Shown piece after piece: positions 1 to 40,599 of a stretch of DNA of 64,000 nucleotides (position 1 is its first letter; each line of letters begins with the position of its first letter). A model generated the notes under the pieces. It made no database searches. It saw only the letters and a program-made list of their open reading frames with translations, and was not told where the DNA came from. The translations under genes were made by a program, and so were the position numbers. The DNA is taken from NCBI RefSeq assembly GCF_036507355.1, contig NZ_AP027877.1; one strand, written 5' to 3'. The stretch is from Escherichia coli. GTDB lineage: Bacteria; Pseudomonadota; Gammaproteobacteria; Enterobacterales; Enterobacteriaceae.

Positions 1-561
1 TACCAGCGTGATATCAGCCGCAAGGGCTATCAGGGGGTTAAAGTTGCGGGCGCTAAGTTGATAGGTCAGGTTGCCAAGTGTGTTGCAACGATGAGCGCGA
101 ATTAGCGCCAGGTCGGCGCGCAGCGGGCGTTCGAGCAGCCAGGTTTTACCGTCGAGTGTTAGTGTCTGTTTGCCTTCCTCTACGACGGTGCCGACACCCG
201 TTGGGGTGAGAAAACCTCCAAGTCCAGCTCCACCACAGCGAATTTGCTCGATTAGAGTACCTTGCGGCACCAGAACGACGTCCATCTCACCAGATATCAT
301 GCGCCGACCTGTTTCCGGGTTGGTGCCGATATGTGAAGCAATCACTTTGCGGACTCGACCATTGACGATGAGCGGACCGATGCCGGTATCAACAAACGCG
401 GTATCATTGGCTATCAATGTCAGGTCGCGAACACCAGATTCCAGTAATGCTTCAACCAGGCGGGATGGAGTGCCAATCCCCATAAATCCGCCCACCATGA
501 TGGTCATGCCGTCACGAAAGAAGCCGGTGGCGTCTTGTAATGTCATCAATTTTGTTTTCAT
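1..561 (-). CDS. atoD: acetate CoA-transferase alpha subunit AtoD, 3' end cut by window edge (first 187 codons present)
   Basis: Minus-strand ATG at 559-561 translates MKTKLMT...; lies just downstream of a sigma54 -24/-12 element; the plus-strand ORF 170..628 in the track is its antisense shadow. Confidence 0.8.
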
Positions 562-606: not shown

Positions 607-623
607 AGCAAGGGGAGTGCCAG
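607..623 (-). promoter_or_regulatory. sigma54 (RpoN) promoter of atoDAEB; minus strand reads CTGGCAC-N5-TTGCT
   Basis: Canonical TGGCAC-N5-TTGC spacing read directly; positioned between atoC stop (757) and atoD start (561). Confidence 0.8.
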
Positions 624-704: not shown

Positions 705-745
705 GCTATGCAGAAAATTGCGCACTGTGCAAATTTCTGCATAGC
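705..745. promoter_or_regulatory. AtoC upstream activating site: 41-bp palindrome GCTATGCAGAAAATTGCGCAC/TGTGCAAATTTCTGCATAGC
   Basis: Two ~20-bp arms in inverted orientation about 90 bp upstream of the sigma54 element, the usual enhancer position for a bacterial enhancer-binding protein. Confidence 0.75.
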
Positions 746-756
746 AAGTTTTGGCG

Positions 757-2142
757 TTATACATCCGCCGGATCGATACCGTATTCCTGGAGTTTATACA
801 TCAATGCACGGCGACTGATGCCCAGCATTAAAGCAGTGCGGGTTCGGTTTCCTTCTTGTTGTTCCAGCACTTCCATAATGATGCGTTTTTCGACGCGTTT
901 AATTTCCTCTTTTAAATTACGCTCTCCGACAGGGGCTGTTTTTACCTCGCCAGCATTACAGACTGGCTGACGAATCTGCGGCGGAAGATCCTCAGAAAAA
1001 ATGATCGGGCCTGAATTCATCACGACGGCGCGTTCAATAACGTTGGAAAGCTCTCGAATATTTCCCGGCCATGACCAGGCGGTAAGCAGTGACATTGCCA
1101 TCGGATCGATGTCGATAATATCGCGCTGATTCTCACTACTGAATTTTTGCAAAAAGTGATTAGCTAACAGGGAAATATCTTCCCGGCGATCGCGCAGAGG
1201 CGGCAGTATTAAATGAATAACGTTAAGGCGATAAAAGAGATCTTCACGGAAGGTGCCTTCTTTTACCATTGCCTGCAAGTCGCGGTTGGTGGCAGCAATG
1301 ATGCGGATATCAACTTTTATGGTCTGATGGCCGCCAATCCGTTCAAATTCCCGTTCCTGCAGAATGCGTAGTAATTTGGCTTGCAGTACGAGCGGCATTT
1401 CGCCAATTTCGTCGAGGAGCAGAGTACCTTCGTTGGCACGTTCAAATAATCCCTGACGCAAGGTTTGTGCACCAGTAAATGCACCTTTTTCATGACCAAA
1501 CAGTTCACTTTCGAGCAACGATTCCGGCAGCGCCGCGCAGTTGACTTTAATGAACGGCCCCTTTGCCCGCCGCGAATTGTAGTGAATCGCTCTGGCAATC
1601 AACTCTTTCCCGGTGCCGCTTTCACCGCTAATCAAGACGCTGGCCTGAGAAAGGGCAATTTTGGCGGTGTCTTTGCAGATATCCATCATCGCCGGGCTGT
1701 TGGTGAGAATGTGCCCCCATTGCCAGCTGGTGCTCAGTGCCTGGTGCAGATGACGGATCTCTTTTTTCATTGACTGGAGTTGTAAAGCGCGCTGAACGAT
1801 TAAATTCAACTCATCGAGATCAAACGGTTTAATAACATAGTCGAAGGCCCCGCAGCGTAGCGCTTCGACGGCGGTTTCCACTTCAGCATAGGCCGTCATC
1901 AGAATAACGGGTGTCCGGGTCTCATGGCTGCGCATCTCCTTTAGTGCCTTGATGCCGTCCATCTCTGGCATGCGGATATCCATCAACACCACGTCAGGGT
2001 GAATATCAGCAAACAGGTGTAATGCTGTGCGTCCGTTGTTCGCACAATGTGTTTCGAATCCTTGTAGTGCAAAAGCGGTGCTCAGCATACGGCGAACATT
2101 ATCTTCATCATCCACAATAAGGATGCGATTAATAGCAGTCAT
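757..2142 (-). CDS. atoC: sigma54-dependent response regulator AtoC (461 aa)
   Basis: ORF track; N-terminal receiver domain, central AAA+ sigma54-activator motif GESGTGKE, C-terminal HTH; start overlaps atoS stop (ATGA). Confidence 0.93.
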   Translation of the reverse strand: MTAINRILIVDDEDNVRRMLSTAFALQGFETHCANNGRTALHLFADIHPDVVLMDIRMPEMDGIKALKEMRSHETRTPVILMTAYAEVETAVEALRCGAFDYVIKPFDLDELNLIVQRALQLQSMKKEIRHLHQALSTSWQWGHILTNSPAMMDICKDTAKIALSQASVLISGESGTGKELIARAIHYNSRRAKGPFIKVNCAALPESLLESELFGHEKGAFTGAQTLRQGLFERANEGTLLLDEIGEMPLVLQAKLLRILQEREFERIGGHQTIKVDIRIIAATNRDLQAMVKEGTFREDLFYRLNVIHLILPPLRDRREDISLLANHFLQKFSSENQRDIIDIDPMAMSLLTAWSWPGNIRELSNVIERAVVMNSGPIIFSEDLPPQIRQPVCNAGEVKTAPVGERNLKEEIKRVEKRIIMEVLEQQEGNRTRTALMLGISRRALMYKLQEYGIDPADV

Positions 2143-3965
2143 ACAGTCTGATTTCCCTGCGGGTTGATCGGTAAAATAAGCGTGAAGGTTGCGCCGTAGC
2201 CCGGCAAACTGGCGACGCGAATATCACCCTGATGGGCATTAATGATGCGTTGACTTAACGCCAGACCAAGCCCGGTTCCTGAGGCTTTGGTGGTGAAAAA
2301 GGGATCGAAGATCTTTTTTTGCAGCGAGAGATCAATGCCACAGCCGTTGTCCTCTATCGAAATGGCCTGTTGTGAGTCGCTGTACTGCCAGGTTCGAATG
2401 CGAATTTTCCCTCGTGCGCTGATAGCCTGGACGGCATTGATCAGGATATTCAGTAGTACCTGTTTGAGCAGTTCACGATCGGCGTTAATCGGGCTTAATT
2501 CATTATCCAGTTCGCTTATGAAGTCGATCCGCGCTTGTACGCCGGCGGTTTGTACCAGTACCAGAGTTTCTTCAACCAATGCATTGAGGCTGACTTGTTG
2601 CCATTGACTGTGGCGTGGACGTGAAAATTCGAGCAATTGCTGAATAACTTTGTTAATTGAATCGATTTCTTTGAGTACTACGGACAGATATTCCTGATGT
2701 ATTAGGTCGCTGGTTTGTTGGCGCAAGATCTGTACATAACCACGAATAGCCGTTAGCGGATTACGTACTTCATGCGCGACGCCAGCCATCAGCTCACCCA
2801 GTGTGGCGAGGCGTTCTGCTTGCGCCATGCGGCGCTGGGTTTCTTTGCGGGCAGTTAAATCAGAGAAAATCACCAAAGCACCTATCATTTCACCGTGCGT
2901 GTTATGAATACGACTGGTAGTGACACTGAGTTCAATGGTGCGGTCACGGCCTGGAAAACTGATCTCCAGCGCCACATGTTCGGTGCCATGTTCCAGCGTA
3001 TCCAGTACTGGACTGTAGAACTGAGTATTGTCGAACAACATGGAGTAAGGCTGCCCTACCAGTTCATGACGTTGATAGCCAGTGATAACTTCTGCTGCCG
3101 GGTTCATGGTGGTTACATCACCCTGGCGGTCAATGGCAATGACGCCATCGGCAGCGTTTTCAATAATCAGATCGTTAAGTGTCCGCGTTTCACGCAGTGC
3201 CTAGGCGAGGTTGTTAACACTCTGACTGATTTGCCCCATTTCACCGGGCAATTGTGGTAATCGAGTGGGAATATTTTGTGCCAGAGTCGAGAGGCCATCG
3301 GTGATGATATCAATATTGGCGCTCAGGCGACGGGAGAAAAGGACAATCAACAGCAGGCTTATCAGCAAACCGGCGGAGAGCACAATGATAATCCTCACAT
3401 CCATTTTCCAGGCCTGGCGGCGAATATCTTCGGTTAATTCATTGGCCCAGATATAGCCGAGGATTTCACCATTACGCTCAATGGGGATCATTGAATTCAA
3501 AATATCGCCGCGCACCTGCCTGCCTGAATACACCAAAGGGGTATTTGCACGCATGACTTCGCGACCAGGGTGATCTGCGGCAATGGTAACGCCGACATTA
3601 TTCTGATATAGCGCTGAAGGCGCGTAGGTGATTATCGCATCCAGCGTTTTGTTGTAATAACCAGCGCCGATGCCAGGGAAGGCGTGAGTGATATTCTCGG
3701 TAATGGGGGCAAGTTCTGCATTTAATGCGCGGATACGCTCCTCACGCGGTAAGTCGATGTAGAGATCGTAGCGATCGCCTAGCGCCTGATTAAGCAGGTT
3801 GACCACGGCAGAAAGTTTTTTCTCTTTTTCAGATAAGACTGCTGAACGTCCTTCTGTTTCTACGATATAACCAATAGTAAGCGTTGGGACAATGACCATC
3901 AGGATTGCCATCAGAATCATTTGATTGCGTAAGCGGCGTGGATAAATCCACTTCATATAATGCAT
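2139..3965 (-). pseudogene. atoS: sensor histidine kinase AtoS interrupted by one in-frame TAG at codon 255 (plus coordinates 3201-3203)
   Basis: Track ORFs 3201..3977 and 2139..3107 are in the same frame and together span exactly 609 codons; translation across the junction reads ...VNNLA*ALRETRTL...; ATG for MHYMKW at 3963-3965. Confidence 0.85.
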
Positions 3966-4131
3966 GCTGAAATCCACTAGTCTTGTCCGGTATATGACGA
4001 TTATCAGAGGTTAAGGTGATGATTTCTCGGCGGTGTATCATATTCCAGAGAAGAGAGAACATTGCGGTAACACGCTTTTACCGCTACCTTAACCACACTC
4101 CATCGGTCACCTGAGGCGGAGCTTCGCCCCT

Positions 4132-6981
4132 TTGAAATACCTTGCTTCTTTTCGTACAACCCTGAAAGCCTCGCGCTACATGTTCAGAGCATTGGCGTTA
4201 GTGCTCTGGCTGTTGATTGCTTTTTCATCCGTTTTTTACATCGTTAATGCGTTACATCAGCGAGAATCGGAAATTCGTCAGGAATTTAATCTGAGTTCCG
4301 ATCAGGCTCAGCGCTTTATTCAACGCACCTCTGATGTGATGAAAGAGCTGAAGTACATCGCCGAAAATCGCTTATCGGCAGAAAACGGTGTGCTTTCCCC
4401 GCGTGGACGAGAAACGCAGGCGGATGTGCCTGCGTTTGAACCGCTGTTTGCCGACTCTGATTGTTCCGCAATGAGTAACACCTGGCGAGGTTCTCTGGAG
4501 TCATTGGCGTGGTTTATGCGCTACTGGCGCGATAATTTTTCTGCGGCTTACGATCTCAACCGGGTATTTTTAATCGGCAGCGATAACCTCTGCATGGCCA
4601 ATTTCGGTCTGCGTGATATGCCAGTGGAACGCGATACCGCGTTGAAAGCGTTGCATGAACGCATCAATAAATATCGAAATGCACCACAAGATGATAGCGG
4701 CAGTAACCTCTACTGGATCAGCGAAGGTCCGCGCCCTGGCGTCGGGTATTTTTACGCGTTGACGCCAGTTTATCTGGCGAACCGGTTGCAGGCGCTTTTG
4801 GGTGTCGAGCAGACCATCCGGATGGAGAATTTTTTCTTACCTGGTACGTTGCCGATGGGGGTTACCATTCTTGATGAAAATGGTCATACCCTGATTTCGC
4901 TTACCGGACCAGAAAGTAAAATTAAGGGCGATCCTCGCTGGATGCAGGAACGCTCCTGGTTTGGCTATACGGAAGGGTTCCGGGAGCTGGTGCTGAAGAA
5001 AAATCTGCCACCCTCATCGCTAAGCATCGTGTATTCGGTGCCGGTTGATAAGGTGCTGGAACGCATTCGCATGTTGATCCTTAACGCAATTTTGCTGAAT
5101 GTGCTTGCCGGAGCTGCATTGTTTACTCTCGCGCGGATGTACGAGCGACGTATTTTCATTCCGGCGGAAAGCGACGCCCTGCGACTGGAAGAACATGAGC
5201 AGTTCAATCGCAAGATTGTCGCCTCCGCGCCAGTGGGTATCTGCATTTTGCGTACCGCTGATGGCGTCAATATTTTAAGTAACGAACTGGCGCATACCTA
5301 TCTCAATATGCTTACGCATGAGGACCGCCAACGACTGACACAAATTATCTGTGGGCAGCAGGTCAATTTTGTTGATGTCCTGACCAGCAACAATACCAAT
5401 CTGCAAATCAGCTTCGTCCATTCGCGCTATCGTAATGAAAACGTGGCCATTTGTGTGCTGGTGGATGTTTCTTCGCGCGTGAAGATGGAAGAGTCGTTGC
5501 AGGAGATGGCACAAGCAGCGGAACAGGCGAGCCAGTCAAAATCGATGTTCCTTGCCACCGTCAGTCATGAGCTGCGAACGCCGCTGTATGGCATTATCGG
5601 TAACCTGGATCTTTTGCAAACCAAAGAGTTACCGAAAGGCGTCGATCGTCTGGTGACGGCAATGAACAACTCTTCCAGCCTGTTGTTGAAAATTATCAGC
5701 GATATTCTCGATTTCTCGAAGATTGAATCGGAACAGTTGAAGATCGAACCGCGTGAGTTTTCACCGCGTGAAGTGATGAACCACATCACCGCCAACTATT
5801 TACCGCTGGTGGTACGCAAGCAGTTAGGCTTGTACTGCTTTATTGAACCGGATGTGCCAGTGGCCTTAAATGGCGACCCGATGCGTTTACAGCAGGTCAT
5901 CTCCAACCTGTTGAGTAACGCCATAAAATTCACCGATACCGGCTGTATAGTTTTGCATGTCCGCGCTGATGGCGATTATCTCTCTATCCGTGTTCGCGAT
6001 ACCGGCGTGGGGATTCCGGCGAAAGAAGTGGTGCGCTTGTTTGATCCCTTCTTCCAGGTCGGAACGGGCGTACAGCGAAACTTCCAGGGGACCGGTCTGG
6101 GTCTGGCGATTTGTGAAAAACTGATCAGCATGATGGACGGCGATATCTCGGTAGATTCAGAACCGGGAATGGGCAGCCAGTTTACCGTGCGTATTCCGTT
6201 GTACGGCGCTCAGTACCCGCAGAAAAAAGGCGTGGAAGGGTTGAGTGGTAAACGCTGCTGGCTGGCGGTCCGCAATGCGTCGCTCTGTCAGTTCCTGGAA
6301 AACAGTTTGCAGCGCAGCGGCATCGTCGTAACAACATACGAAGGGCAGGAACCGACTCCCGAAGATGTGTTAATCACTGACGAGGTAGTGAGTAAAAAAT
6401 GGCAGGGCAGAGCGGTAGTGACCTTCTGTCGTCGACATATTGGTATTCCGCTGGAGAAAGCGCCAGGGGAGTGGGTACACAGTGTGGCTGCCCCGCATGA
6501 GCTACCGGCATTGTTGGCGCGTATTTATTTGATCGAGATGGAGAGCGACGATCCTGCTAACGCTCTGCCGTCGACGGACAAAGCGGTCAGCGATAATGAC
6601 GATATGATGATTCTGGTCGTGGATGATCATCCGATTAACCGACGTCTGCTGGCAGATCAGTTGGGATCGTTGGGCTATCAATGTAAAACCGCGAATGATG
6701 GCGTCGATGCGCTTAATGTACTTAGCAAGAATCATATTGATATCGTGCTTAGCGACGTCAACATGCCAAATATGGATGGTTACCGCTTGACGCAACGCAT
6801 TCGTCAGTTGGGACTGACGTTGCCGGTAATCGGAGTAACTGCTAATGCGTTGGCTGAAGAGAAGCAGCGGTGTCTGGAGTCCGGTATGGACAGCTGCCTC
6901 TCGAAGCCGGTAACGCTGGATGTGATAAAACAGACGCTGACGGTATATGCCGAGAGGGTCAGGAAATCGCGGGAATCGTAG
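4132..6981 (+). CDS. rcsC: hybrid sensor histidine kinase RcsC (949 aa)
   Basis: ORF track; HisKA H-box (SHELRTPL), HATPase and C-terminal receiver domain; convergent with rcsB. Confidence 0.93.
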   Translation: MKYLASFRTTLKASRYMFRALALVLWLLIAFSSVFYIVNALHQRESEIRQEFNLSSDQAQRFIQRTSDVMKELKYIAENRLSAENGVLSPRGRETQADVPAFEPLFADSDCSAMSNTWRGSLESLAWFMRYWRDNFSAAYDLNRVFLIGSDNLCMANFGLRDMPVERDTALKALHERINKYRNAPQDDSGSNLYWISEGPRPGVGYFYALTPVYLANRLQALLGVEQTIRMENFFLPGTLPMGVTILDENGHTLISLTGPESKIKGDPRWMQERSWFGYTEGFRELVLKKNLPPSSLSIVYSVPVDKVLERIRMLILNAILLNVLAGAALFTLARMYERRIFIPAESDALRLEEHEQFNRKIVASAPVGICILRTADGVNILSNELAHTYLNMLTHEDRQRLTQIICGQQVNFVDVLTSNNTNLQISFVHSRYRNENVAICVLVDVSSRVKMEESLQEMAQAAEQASQSKSMFLATVSHELRTPLYGIIGNLDLLQTKELPKGVDRLVTAMNNSSSLLLKIISDILDFSKIESEQLKIEPREFSPREVMNHITANYLPLVVRKQLGLYCFIEPDVPVALNGDPMRLQQVISNLLSNAIKFTDTGCIVLHVRADGDYLSIRVRDTGVGIPAKEVVRLFDPFFQVGTGVQRNFQGTGLGLAICEKLISMMDGDISVDSEPGMGSQFTVRIPLYGAQYPQKKGVEGLSGKRCWLAVRNASLCQFLENSLQRSGIVVTTYEGQEPTPEDVLITDEVVSKKWQGRAVVTFCRRHIGIPLEKAPGEWVHSVAAPHELPALLARIYLIEMESDDPANALPSTDKAVSDNDDMMILVVDDHPINRRLLADQLGSLGYQCKTANDGVDALNVLSKNHIDIVLSDVNMPNMDGYRLTQRIRQLGLTLPVIGVTANALAEEKQRCLESGMDSCLSKPVTLDVIKQTLTVYAERVRKSRES

Positions 6982-7174
6982 GACGGATAAGGTGTTTATG
7001 CCGCATCTGGCATTCAGTGCAAATGCCAGATGCGACGCTGACGCGTCTTATCTGGCCTACTTTAATGTAATCTGTTGAAATAATGGGAATCGTAGGACGG
7101 ATAAGGCGTTTACGCCGCATCCGGCAATCGGTGCAAATGCCAGATAAGACACAAACGCGTCTTATCTGGCCTAC
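6971..7174. repeat. REP/BIME cluster: two ~90-bp units in tandem (6971-7060 and 7085-7174), each carrying REP palindromes (GCCGGATGCGGCGTAAACGCCTTATCCGGCCTAC-like)
   Basis: Direct reading; units about 88 percent identical; first unit overlaps the last codons and TAG stop of rcsC. Confidence 0.8.
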
Positions 7175-10831: not shown

Positions 10832-10924
10832 AAAAAAAACCGGATGCGAGGCATCCGGTTGAAATAGGGGTAAACAGACATTCAGAAATGAATGACGGTA
10901 ATAAATAAAGTTAATGATGATAGC
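10832..10924 (-). ncRNA. micF: MicF antisense sRNA
   Basis: Minus strand reads GCTATCATCATTAACTTTATTTATTACCGTCATTCATTTCTGAATGTCTGTTTACCCCTATTTCAACCGGATGCCTCGCATCCGGTTTTTTTT with terminal hairpin and U-run; divergent from ompC. Confidence 0.85.
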
Positions 10925-11243
10925 GGGAGTTATTCTAGTTGCGAGTGAAGGTTTTGTTTTGACATTCAGTGCTGTCAAATACTTAAGAATAAGTTATTGA
11001 TTTTAACCTTGAATTATTATTGCTTGATGTTAGGTGCTTATTTCGCCATTCCGCAATAATCTTAAAAAGTTCCCTTGCATTTACATTTTGAAACATCTAT
11101 AGCGATAAATGAAACATCTTAAAAGTTTTAGTATCATATTCGTGTTGGATTATTCTGCATTTTTGGGGAGAATGGACTTGCCGACTGATTAATGAGGGTT
11201 AATCAGTATGCAGTGGCATAAAAAAGCAAATAAAGGCATATAA

Positions 11244-12362
<1,119 letters not shown>

Positions 12363-18899: not shown

Positions 18900-19035
18900 G
18901 ATGTGCCACATCCGGCATGGTATGCCGGATGTGGCGTATGCTGATAAGACGCGCCAGCGTCGCATCAGGCAACCGGCTCGGGCGTTAGATGCGGCGTAAC
19001 CGCCTTATCCAACCTATGGGGTGCCGCACTTCACG
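18900..19035. repeat. REP element cluster between mqo and eco
   Basis: Imperfect palindromes of the GCCGGATG...CATCCGGC / CGCCTTATCC type read directly. Confidence 0.7.
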
Positions 19036-32933: not shown

Positions 32934-33503
32934 AGTAGTCTCCTGAGGTTTTATTAGAATCATTATGTTTGAGCGTAGCGTTGGTAACGCTACCAGGCGC
33001 GTGAATGTTACCCCATTTTATGTATGGACATGTAGCGAAAACTACAACCTTGTCGTTCGCTTTGGCATCATTTTCATTATAAAGACGGAATTTTGCATCA
33101 GCTTCTCATCAAGAAAAACAACTAAAAAATCAATCACAATACTTGTGCATTTCTTTAAACAGTTTTTAAAAACTGACTCCGGGTATGGAGCTATGGGTAT
33201 TTTCTGTACCCAATGCTTTTAACTGCAATTAATTTCATAGGATGAAAGCTCAATGCATCAATCTGGTTCTGTTTCTCTTTGTCGTTCCGCAATATCTGTT
33301 CTGGTAGCTACAGCGTTATATTCACCCATAGCATTGGCATCAACAGTTGAGTATGGTGAGACAGTTGATGGTGTTGTCCTGGAAAAAGATATCCAGCTGG
33401 TTTATGGGACCGCCAATAATACGAAAATCAATCCTGGCGGAGAACAGCATATTAAAGAATTTGGTATAAGTAGTAATACTGAAATTAAGGTAATGACTCC
33501 AAC

Positions 33504-34007
33504 TTATTGATAGTGTTTTATGTTCAGATAATGCCCGATGACTTTGTCATGCAGCTCCACCGATTTTGAGAACGACAGCGACTTCCGTCCCAGCCGTGCC
33601 AGGTGCTGCCTCAGATTCAGGTTATGCCGCTCAATTCGCTGCGTATATCGCTTGCTGATTACGTGCAGCTTTCCCTTCAGGCGGGATTCATACAGCGGCC
33701 AGCCATCCGTCATCCATATCACCACGTCAAAGGGTGACAGCAGGCTCATAAGACGCCCCAGCGTCGCCATCGTGCGTTCACCGAATACGTGCGCAACAAC
33801 CGTCTTCCGGAGCCTGTCATACGCGTAAAACAGCCAGCGCTGGCGCGATTTAGCCCCGACATAGCCCCACTGTTCGTCCATTTCCGCGCAGACGATGACG
33901 TCACTGCCCGGCTGTATGCGCGAGGTTACCGACTGCGGCCTGAGTTTTTTAAGTGACGTAAAATCGTGTTGAGGCCAACGCCCATAATGCGGGCTGTTGC
34001 CCGGCAT
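33504..34007 (-). CDS. insB: IS1 transposase InsB (167 aa; expressed as InsAB' by -1 frameshift)
   Basis: ORF track; recognised IS1 InsB sequence. Confidence 0.9.
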
Positions 34008-34201
34008 CCAACGCCATTCATGGCCATATCAATGATTTTCTGGTGCGTACCGGGTTGAGAAGCGGTGTAAGTGAACTGCAGTTGCCATGTTTTACGGCAG
34101 TGAGAGCAGAGATAGCGCTGATGTCCGGCGGTGCTTTTGCCGTTACGCACCACCCCGTCAGTAGCTGAACAGGAGGGACAGCTGATAGAAACAGAAGCCA
34201 C
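33926..34201 (-). CDS. insA: IS1 protein InsA (91 aa)
   Basis: ORF track; zinc-finger CPSC...CSHC and HTH; overlaps insB as in IS1. Confidence 0.9.
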
Positions 34202-36682
34202 TGGAGCACCTCAAAAACACCATCATACACTAAATCAGTAAGTTGGCAGCATCACCGAAATTAACGGCGGGTATCAGTACATTGAAATGAATGGCACCGC
34301 AGAATACTCCGTATTAAATGATGGTTATCAAATTGTTCAAATGGGTGGCGCGGCAAACCAGACTACCCTCAATAATGGTGTGCTACAGGTTTATGGCGCA
34401 GCGAATGATCCCACGATTAAAGGCGGGCGCTTAATCGTTGAAAAAGATGGGATTACCGTCCTTGCCGCTATCGAAAAGGGAGGATTACTGGAGGTTAAAG
34501 AGGGGGGATTAGCGATTGCGGTAGATCAGAAAGCAGGCGGTGCTATTAAAGCAAGCACGCGGGTCATGGAGGTATTCGGAACAAACCGTCTCGGTCAGTT
34601 CGAAATCAAGAATGGTATTGCTAACAATATGCTGTTGGAAAACGGCGGAAGTTTGCGAGTTGAAGAAAATGACTTCGCTTATAATACTACTGTAGATAGT
34701 GGCGGCTTACTGGAGGTTATGGATGGCGGGACTGCAACTGGCGTTGATAAAAAAGCAGGCGGAAAATTAATTGTCTCAACGAATGCGCTGGAAGTGAGTG
34801 GTACAAACAGTAAAGGCCAATTTAGTATAAAAGATGGTGTGTCAAAAAATTATGAACTGGATGATGGTTCCGGGCTTATTGTTATGGAGGACACGCAGGT
34901 CATTGACACTATCCTCGATGAGCATGCCACTATGCAATCGCTGGGAAAGGATACTGGTACGAGAGTGCAGGCAAATGCGGTATATGATCTCGGTCGATCA
35001 GATCAGAATGGAAGTATAACGTATTCCTCTAAAGCCATCTCTGAAAATATGGTTATCAACAATGGCCGCGCTAATGTCTGGGCTGGCACAATGGTTAACG
35101 TTTCAGTCAGAGGGAATGATGGCATTCTTGAGGTCATGAAGCCGCAAATAAATTATGCACCCGCTATGTTGGTGGGTAAGGTCGTGGTTTCTGAGGGCGC
35201 TTCTTTAAGAACGCATGGTGTCGTGGATACCAGCAAAGCGGATGTTTCGCTCGAAAATAGCGCATGGACCATCATTGCCGATATCACTACGACGAACCAA
35301 AACACCCTCCTCAACTTAGCCAACCTTGCGATGTCTGACGCAAATGTGATTATGATGGATGAGCCAGTGACTCGTTCATCAGTGACGGCAAGTGCGGAAA
35401 ATTTCATTACGTTGACCACCAATACCCTGTCGGGAAACGGCAATTTTTATATGCGTGCCGATATGGCTAATCATCAGAGCGATCAGCTCAACGTCACCGG
35501 TCAGGCAACAGGTGATTTCAAAATATTCGTGACGGACACCGGTGCCAGCCCGGCAGCAGGAGATAGCCTTACACTGGTAACAACGGGCGGCAGTGATGCT
35601 GCATTTACGTTGGGCAATGCCGGAGGCGTTGTTGATATCGGTACGTATGAATATACCTTGCTGGATAATGGCAACCATAGCTGGAGTCTGGCAGAGAATC
35701 GCGCGCAAATTACCCCTTCAACCACTGATGTGCTGAATATGGCGGCCGCACAACCGCTGGTATTTGATGCAGAACTGGACACCGTGCGTGAGCGTCTTGG
35801 TAGCGTAAAAGGCGTTAGTTACGATACGGCGATGTGGAGTTCGGCAATTAACACCCGCAACAACGTGACCACTGATGCGGGAGCTGGTTTTGAGCAAACA
35901 TTGACGGGCCTGACGCTCGGTATCGATAGCCGTTTCTCCCGTGAAGAAAGCAGTACAATTCGCGGCTTGTTCTTTGGTTACTCTCATTCTGATATTGGTT
36001 TTGATCGCGGCGGAAAAGGTAATATCGATAGCTATACCCTGGGGGCTTATGCCGGTTGGGAGCATCAGAACGGTGCCTATGTTGATGGGGTGGTGAAAGT
36101 TGACCGTTTTGCCAACACCATCCATGGCAAGATGAGTAATGGGGCAACAGCGTTTGGCGATTACAATAGTAACGGCGCGGGTGCTCATGTTGAGAGCGGG
36201 TTCCGTTGGGTTGACGGATTGTGGAGTGTTAGACCCTATCTGGCCTTTACCGGCTTTACCACAGATGGTCAGGACTACACGTTATCAAACGGCATGCGCG
36301 CGGACGTGGGAAATACCCGGATATTACGCGCTGAAGCGGGAACGGCGGTAAGCTATCACATGGACCTGCAAAACGGTACGGCGCTGGAACCCTGGCTGAA
36401 AGCCGCCGTGCGTCAGGAATACGCCGATTCTAACCAGGTGAAAGTTAATGACGATGGCAAATTTAATAATGATGTGGCTGGAACCAGTGGCGTTTATCAG
36501 GCTGGGATAAGGTCATCGTTTACCCCGACGTTAAGCGGTCATTTGTCAGTCAGCTATGGCAATGGCGCAGGGGTAGAATCGCCGTGGAATACCCAGGCGG
36601 GTGTGGTCTGGACGTTCTGATAACAGACAATAAACAGGCCGTGATGTGTCGCGGTCTGTTTATCGAATTAAATGCAGATATA

Positions 36683-40206: not shown

Positions 40207-40599
<393 letters not shown>

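Follow-up and report, generated by a model that had tools for sequence, protein, structure and literature searches.

The question raised by this locus is whether the sensor kinase gene atoS, which is interrupted by a stop codon in the Escherichia coli DNA analysed here, is truly inactive, how the stop arose, and what follows for the acetoacetate-inducible atoDAEB operon. The analysed stretch (the window) is 64,000 nucleotides long and belongs to contig NZ_AP027877.1 of the assembly GCF_036507355.1. The explanation that we hold with good confidence is that it comes from a natural E. coli in which atoS was inactivated by a C-to-T change at a Dcm site, that this change would have originated by deamination, and that atoDAEB would be uninducible in the strain.

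In the window, the 608 codons of atoS run along the minus strand from 3965 to 2139. The gene order, rcsC (divergent), atoS, atoC (with an overlapping start) and atoD, matches that of K-12, and atoS is in the orthologous position. Translation of 3980..2139 yields one AtoS-like frame, broken by the stop at codon 255 alone. In a TBLASTN search, residues 1-608 of K-12 AtoS aligned to 3965..2142 with 98.7% identity, no gaps and one stop. An earlier note on this DNA, made from the letters alone, had proposed that a single in-frame TAG splits a 608-codon kinase into the open reading frames 3201..3977 and 2139..3107 of one frame, and the gapless alignment bears this out. The TAG is located at 3203..3201 on the minus strand (CTA at 3201-3203 when the plus strand is read), in the context GTT AAC AAC CTC GCC TAG GCA CTG CGT, where the note had correctly read the part from the first AAC to CTG. 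Counted from the true atoS start, an ATG at 3965, the N-terminal product has a length of 254 aa. The 258-aa open reading frame at 3201..3977 begins at a GTG upstream of the real ATG.

The domains of an intact orthologue (Pfam: HAMP 209-259, PAS 265-369, HisKA 389-451, HATPase_c 496-600) locate the break within the protein. The 5' fragment (codons 1-254; 3204..3965, minus strand) encodes TM1, the extracytoplasmic region, TM2 and most of HAMP. The upstream piece had been described as keeping the TM/HAMP region. This holds for the transmembrane part, but HAMP is not whole, as the stop cuts off its last five residues. The 3' remainder (codons 256-608 and the stop codon; 2139..3200, minus strand) contains PAS, HisKA with the H-box (AHEVRNPL) and HATPase_c, so that the H-box and both kinase domains all lie beyond the stop. 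The first start codon past the stop is M287, an ATG located 93 nt after it and within PAS. It opens the sole ORF with a start codon in this remainder (3107..2139, 322 aa). The downstream piece was said to keep PAS, the H-box and the ATPase domain: the latter two are indeed present in the 322-aa ORF, but PAS is incomplete, lacking its first 22 residues. No Shine-Dalgarno sequence stands at a suitable distance from M287, the end of AGGGTGA being more than 10 nt away on the upstream side. Both pieces have exact sequence matches in GenBank, where they are entered as hypothetical proteins: BED21693.1 (VEE46_14610) for the 5' fragment and BED21692.1 (VEE46_14600) for the 322-aa ORF. The TAG at codon 255 leaves the window atoS without an uninterrupted reading frame across sensor and kinase, and judged from its sequence the gene is a pseudogene or null allele, not a functional AtoS member.

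Two substitutions in the N-terminal fragment, T140A and T197S (window 3546-3548 and 3375-3377), are private to the window lineage in a comparison with six other genomes. They could reflect relaxed constraint or be unrelated to the stop. A promoter and terminator scan of 2000-4200 detected sites no more numerous than in shuffled sequence.

The codon that preceded the stop was CAG, encoding Gln255. It is found in the closest complete genome (L001), in the GTDB representative of E. coli (L002) and in the orthologues L053-L056. The earlier note had suggested an origin by one C-to-T change in a CAG codon, to be checked by alignment with AtoS from other E. coli; in all those examined here the ancestral codon is CAG. 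Over 102 aligned bases around codon 255, this C/T difference is the only one between the window and L001. A scan of the GTDB species representatives with codon 255 left free returned a single locus, in E. coli E69, which carries CAG, and no outgroup.

The Dcm context of the mutated C was overlooked in the earlier note. The ancestral GCC-CAG-GCA includes the Dcm site CCAGG, whose inner C is the base that mutated. What remains is CTAGG (3200..3204, minus strand, with the changed base at 3203), an inner C-to-T change from a CCWGG ancestor. The mutation also creates CCTAGG at 3200-3205, including the tetranucleotide CTAG. We take CCTAGG to be the AvrII/BlnI site, and it could provide an easy PCR-RFLP marker of the atoS Q255* allele. 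The CCAGG that was lost is a BstNI/MvaI site. Dcm methylates the inner C of CCAGG, and Vsr repairs the T:G mismatch produced when the methylated C deaminates (PMC4924334; PMC9520237). The amber spectrum of lacI is dominated by hotspots at the second C of CCAGG (Coulondre et al. 1978, to the extent reviewed in PMC12606429). For genomes of natural E. coli and Salmonella, the C-to-T rate at the inner C of CCWGG is about 8-fold that at other Cs, according to the account of Cherry 2018 given in PMC9520237. The atoS stop would most likely have originated when the inner C of CCAGG, as 5-methylcytosine, deaminated spontaneously to thymine and the change escaped very-short-patch (Vsr) repair.

The allele also occurs outside the window. 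Codon 255 is a real TAG in 11 contigs besides the window's own, three from the window lineage (L003-L005) and eight from other lineages. The same-lineage carriers (GCA_905398635.1, ERR3330519 and SRR32181686) differ from the window by at most 3 SNPs over 7 kb. Taken together, the 11 contigs form five haplotype groups (at least four or five divergent haplotypes), which are 72-110 SNPs apart over 7 kb and show different SNPs at positions -10 and +20 relative to the TAG. By exact look-up, the 254-aa product is present on three protein haplotypes. Three carriers (L008, L012 and L011) are identical over 4,301 bp, save for the codon-255 base, to the wild-type genomes SK1144, FDAARGOS_1284 and FDAARGOS_497, respectively, and the haplotypes of these wild-type genomes are 32-47 sites apart from one another. 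This pattern indicates that atoS Q255* arose by recurrent mutation and not by common descent or recombination. The independent appearance of the identical allele in several unrelated lineages would be explained by the mutated C being a methylation hotspot.

Q255* is a rare allele, found at the tips of the tree. Three TAG-bearing 61-mers, representing three local haplotypes, had no exact match among 5,426 complete RefSeq genomes. Raw contig counts from the exact look-ups were dropped as a measure of allele frequency because many of the matches are genes cut by a contig end (L014, L015, all listed matches for Q150 and Q248, and most of those for Q60 and R235), and the DNA was checked at every site. 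Neither the allele nor its recurrence was found in the searchable literature. In one of the Q255* carriers (L009, 7154-7804) atoA is present as two ORFs of 111 and 99 aa, not as one of 216 aa, which suggests that its ato operon was decaying further after atoS inactivation.

Codon 255 is one of several such positions in atoS. The gene has 9 Dcm sites, and a transition at a Dcm site gives an in-frame TAG at Q184, W186, Q255, Q281, Q513 and W526. The exact truncated products expected from individual sites were looked up on one common protein haplotype and the matching DNA was inspected. Real stops were detected at all four Dcm sites tested: at least 3 TAG at Q184, 6 TAG and 1 TGA at W186, the 11 TAG at Q255, and 5 TAG at Q281. 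Among the non-Dcm CAG codons, Q60 has 3 real TAG, the products for Q121, Q305 and Q315 are absent from the collection, and Q150 and Q248 gave contig-end truncations only. At R235, a CGA codon, there is 1 real stop. The loci with nonsense alleles other than Q255* come from public assemblies (L016-L018, L026-L028, L030-L036, L040-L044 and L068). Stop alleles are present at 4/4 Dcm sites and at 1/6 non-Dcm CAG codons (Fisher one-sided p = 0.024) in what is a small control of 10 sites, one protein haplotype and exact-match look-ups, in which the non-Dcm codon Q60 also has TAG. The difference is suggestive of a mutation bias, as far as so small a sample can support one.

The partners of AtoS are intact. 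The 461-aa product of atoC (757..2142, minus strand) shows 100% identity to AtoC of K-12, and the ATG of the gene shares bases with the stop codon of atoS (ATGA, within GTATGA). A constitutive atoC(Con) allele is ruled out, AtoC being the K-12 wild type. Both promoter elements of atoDAEB are located between atoC and atoD. The predicted AtoC-binding inverted repeat (705..745, minus strand, 41 nt: GCTATGCAGAAATTTGCACAGTGCGCAATTTTCTGCATAGC) and the sigma-54 -24/-12 element (607..622, minus strand: TGGCACTCCCCTTGCT) are base-for-base those of K-12. By sequence, the form TGGCAC-N5-TTGCW is present at 622..607, with the upstream 20-bp inverted repeat for AtoC at 745..705. The earlier note's reading of atoC, the sigma-54 element and the AtoC palindrome as intact was therefore sound. 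Of the atoDAEB operon, the window holds codons 1-187 of atoD (1..561, minus strand), which have no stops, show 99.5% identity to K-12 and are ended by the window edge; atoAEB lie beyond it. The near-identical relative L003 has intact atoD and atoA genes and an intact beginning of atoE.

The surroundings are those of a normal E. coli chromosome segment, of which this is the rcsDB / rcsC / atoSC-atoD end. When 52 K-12 proteins were compared with the 64-kb window, atoS was the sole gene with a stop, and there was no frameshift in any of the 52. Full-length alignments without stops were obtained for 49 of the other genes, while atoD and psuK, also free of stops, are ended by the window edges. A single tRNA, proL (GGG anticodon), is encoded in the window. 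The best identity of the window to a complete RefSeq genome is 98.6% over 25 kb. Given this value, Shigella-like reductive evolution was considered, and it was rejected because no damage was seen in the 51 other genes and the window contains only a single IS element.

A few other features of the window were recorded. The autotransporter gene yejO (about 33250-36620) is broken by an IS1 at about 33490-34260 (InsA 33926..34201 and InsB 33504..34007, both on the minus strand), and its remains are ORFs of 85 aa (N-terminal) and 777 aa (C-terminal). In K-12 yejO is also a pseudogene, but it is broken there by an IS5 at another site. OmpC (11259-12362) has 92.7% identity to K-12 OmpC, with indels, while neighbouring proteins are at 98.5-100%, and this divergence fits the usual hypervariability of the porin. 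Three matches to Rfam naRNA4 (REP/BIME-type repeats) were detected at 6981-7171 and 18939-19014, namely a tandem pair in the rcsC-rcsB interval and a single copy that separates mqo from eco. As expected, the window also contains MicF (10832-10925) and the L25 leader (40513-40538).

Other explanations of the stop and its distribution have to be weighed against these results. The TAG could be an artefact of sequencing or assembly, namely a nanopore miscall at a Dcm-methylated CCWGG in an atoS that is really intact. The change falls exactly within a Dcm motif, the single 4.64-Mb contig means that long reads were probably used, and CCAGG/CCTGG motifs accounted for about 70% of the consensus errors made with default ONT models (PMC6591954). 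A consensus error of this kind should, however, affect many Dcm motifs of the assembly and be missing from independent data. Of 161 Dcm sites of K-12, 151 are conserved in the window, so that 6% are changed, compared to about 8% expected at a background divergence of 1.6% (the window's own Dcm sites number 169). The 51 other compared genes have neither frameshift nor stop. The same TAG is present in L003-L005, independent datasets made up of one NCBI draft and two assemblies from public read runs, as well as in the eight contigs of other lineages. A consensus error is rejected on these grounds, and we regard an intact atoS as extremely improbable. It is also very improbable that the allele has a single ancestral origin and was spread among lineages by homologous recombination. 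E. coli does recombine, and every carrier has exactly the same base change. Against this, carriers already differ at SNPs 10 nt before the TAG and 20 nt after it, and three carriers match three different wild-type genomes on both sides over 4.3 kb, so the imported tract would have to be shorter than about 30 bp and to have been transferred independently several times.

Selection is a further candidate: recurrence might stem mainly from an advantage of having AtoSC off in some niches, with the Dcm context being incidental. This is rather unlikely as the main cause. In its favour, atoS is often lost: at least 80% of the atoS query (window 2100-4100) is found in one place in 3,922 of 5,422 matching complete genomes, leaving about 28% that carry less than 80% of this 2-kb query. 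Alleles with IS1 or IS3 inside atoS exist (H13 and H14, among the matches listed), and real stops also occur at the non-Dcm codon Q60 and at R235. Selection would however take any nonsense site, yet stops were seen at 4/4 Dcm sites and at 1/6 non-Dcm CAG sites. Q255* is very rare (0/5,426 complete genomes), and its carriers sit one base away from wild-type relatives with no sign of sweeps. Recurrence could still be due in part to selection for atoS loss acting beside the mutation bias. The last alternative concerns the outcome and not the origin, and holds that the allele is leaky or split, with AtoC being phosphorylated thanks to an amber suppressor tRNA, basal UAG read-through or a soluble kinase initiated at M287. 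Read-through with Gln insertion would give wild-type AtoS, the frame after codon 255 is fully open and has no private amino-acid changes, atoC and the promoter are perfectly conserved, and an ATG is available 93 nt past the stop. On the other side, suppressor tRNAs are rare among natural isolates and the window's only tRNA is proL. Basal read-through is typically well below 1%. M287 lies inside PAS and is poorly placed for initiation, as described above, and a fragment that lacks the sensor, the transmembrane segments and HAMP could not answer acetoacetate. The split atoA of L009 also suggests regulon decay after atoS was hit. A leaky allele is hence considered unlikely, although some residual AtoS activity could come from read-through, M287 re-initiation or a suppressor. 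A more elaborate version, in which Q184, W186, Q255 and Q281 form a mutation-prone off-switch, methylation-driven amber mutations repeatedly and preferentially silence AtoSC since its loss pays in some hosts, and low-level Gln read-through makes the allele a selected, leaky regulatory state and not a dead gene, is highly improbable.

Inactivation of atoS by a point mutation at a methylated cytosine is thus the reading that is preferred here, and its expected consequences can be stated. Translation would end after AtoS residue 254. The product would be a membrane-anchored sensor/HAMP stub devoid of PAS, the phospho-acceptor histidine and the ATPase domain, and would be incapable of autophosphorylation or phosphotransfer. 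Wild-type AtoC would then not be phosphorylated in response to acetoacetate, and the sigma-54 promoter of atoDAEB, though intact, would stay uninduced. In K-12, a Pato-GFP reporter is silent to acetoacetate in the atoS knockout JW2213, and no other two-component system replaces AtoS (PMC7618054). By analogy with unresponsive K-12 knockouts of atoS, induction of atoDAEB by acetoacetate has likely been lost in the window strain as well, and the strain is predicted to be unable to induce short-chain fatty acid (acetoacetate) catabolism. Some polarity of the stop on atoC is plausible, because about 1 kb of untranslated message separates the premature stop from the overlapped atoC start. The effect on atoC expression is nevertheless uncertain, since an atoC promoter separate from the atoS promoter has been used as a reporter (PMC1784093).

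For the window strain, this amounts to a testable metabolic defect: acetoacetate-induced short-chain fatty acid catabolism is predicted to be absent in spite of an intact regulator, promoter and operon, the operon being seen here as atoD codons 1-187. At the level of the species, the ato system is often lost or broken in E. coli. The case also has bearing on how variants are interpreted. The same nonsense allele in different strains need not mean common descent or recombination, and variants in CCWGG motifs need checking against nanopore artefacts. By the sequence comparisons presented above, the null allele atoS Q255* is real and inherited, lies at a classic hotspot of 5-methylcytosine mutation and has recurred across lineages. 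It is an ordinary gene knockout and a known kind of event, and involves no new mechanism or system.

Several known systems resemble this one. Other losses of ato in E. coli, by deletion of the locus or by IS1 or IS3 insertion into atoS, have the same outcome, with the AtoSC sensor inactive or absent. The atoS case differs from them in being a point mutation that leaves the rest of the locus intact. The engineered K-12 knockouts (Keio JW2213 and the delta-atoSC strain BW28878) likewise lack the AtoS kinase while the atoDAEB promoter is present. Unlike them, Q255* leaves a 254-aa membrane stub, and its polarity and leakiness may differ from those of a clean deletion. Hypermutation at the inner C of CCWGG was described from public assemblies by Cherry 2018 (J Bacteriol), and atoS Q255* would be a gene-inactivating example of it; that work estimates a rate for the whole genome, whereas the present case concerns one locus and a small control at the level of sites. 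The closest likeness is to the CCAGG amber hotspots of lacI (Coulondre, Miller, Farabaugh and Gilbert 1978), with which atoS shares the motif, the inner C, the CAG-to-TAG change and the recurrence at one site. The lacI mutants were a laboratory collection, while the atoS alleles are found in a chromosomal regulator gene of natural isolates, where methylation of the site is putative. The atoS locus thereby shows in clean form, and in wild populations, the kind of CCAGG amber hotspot known from lacI.
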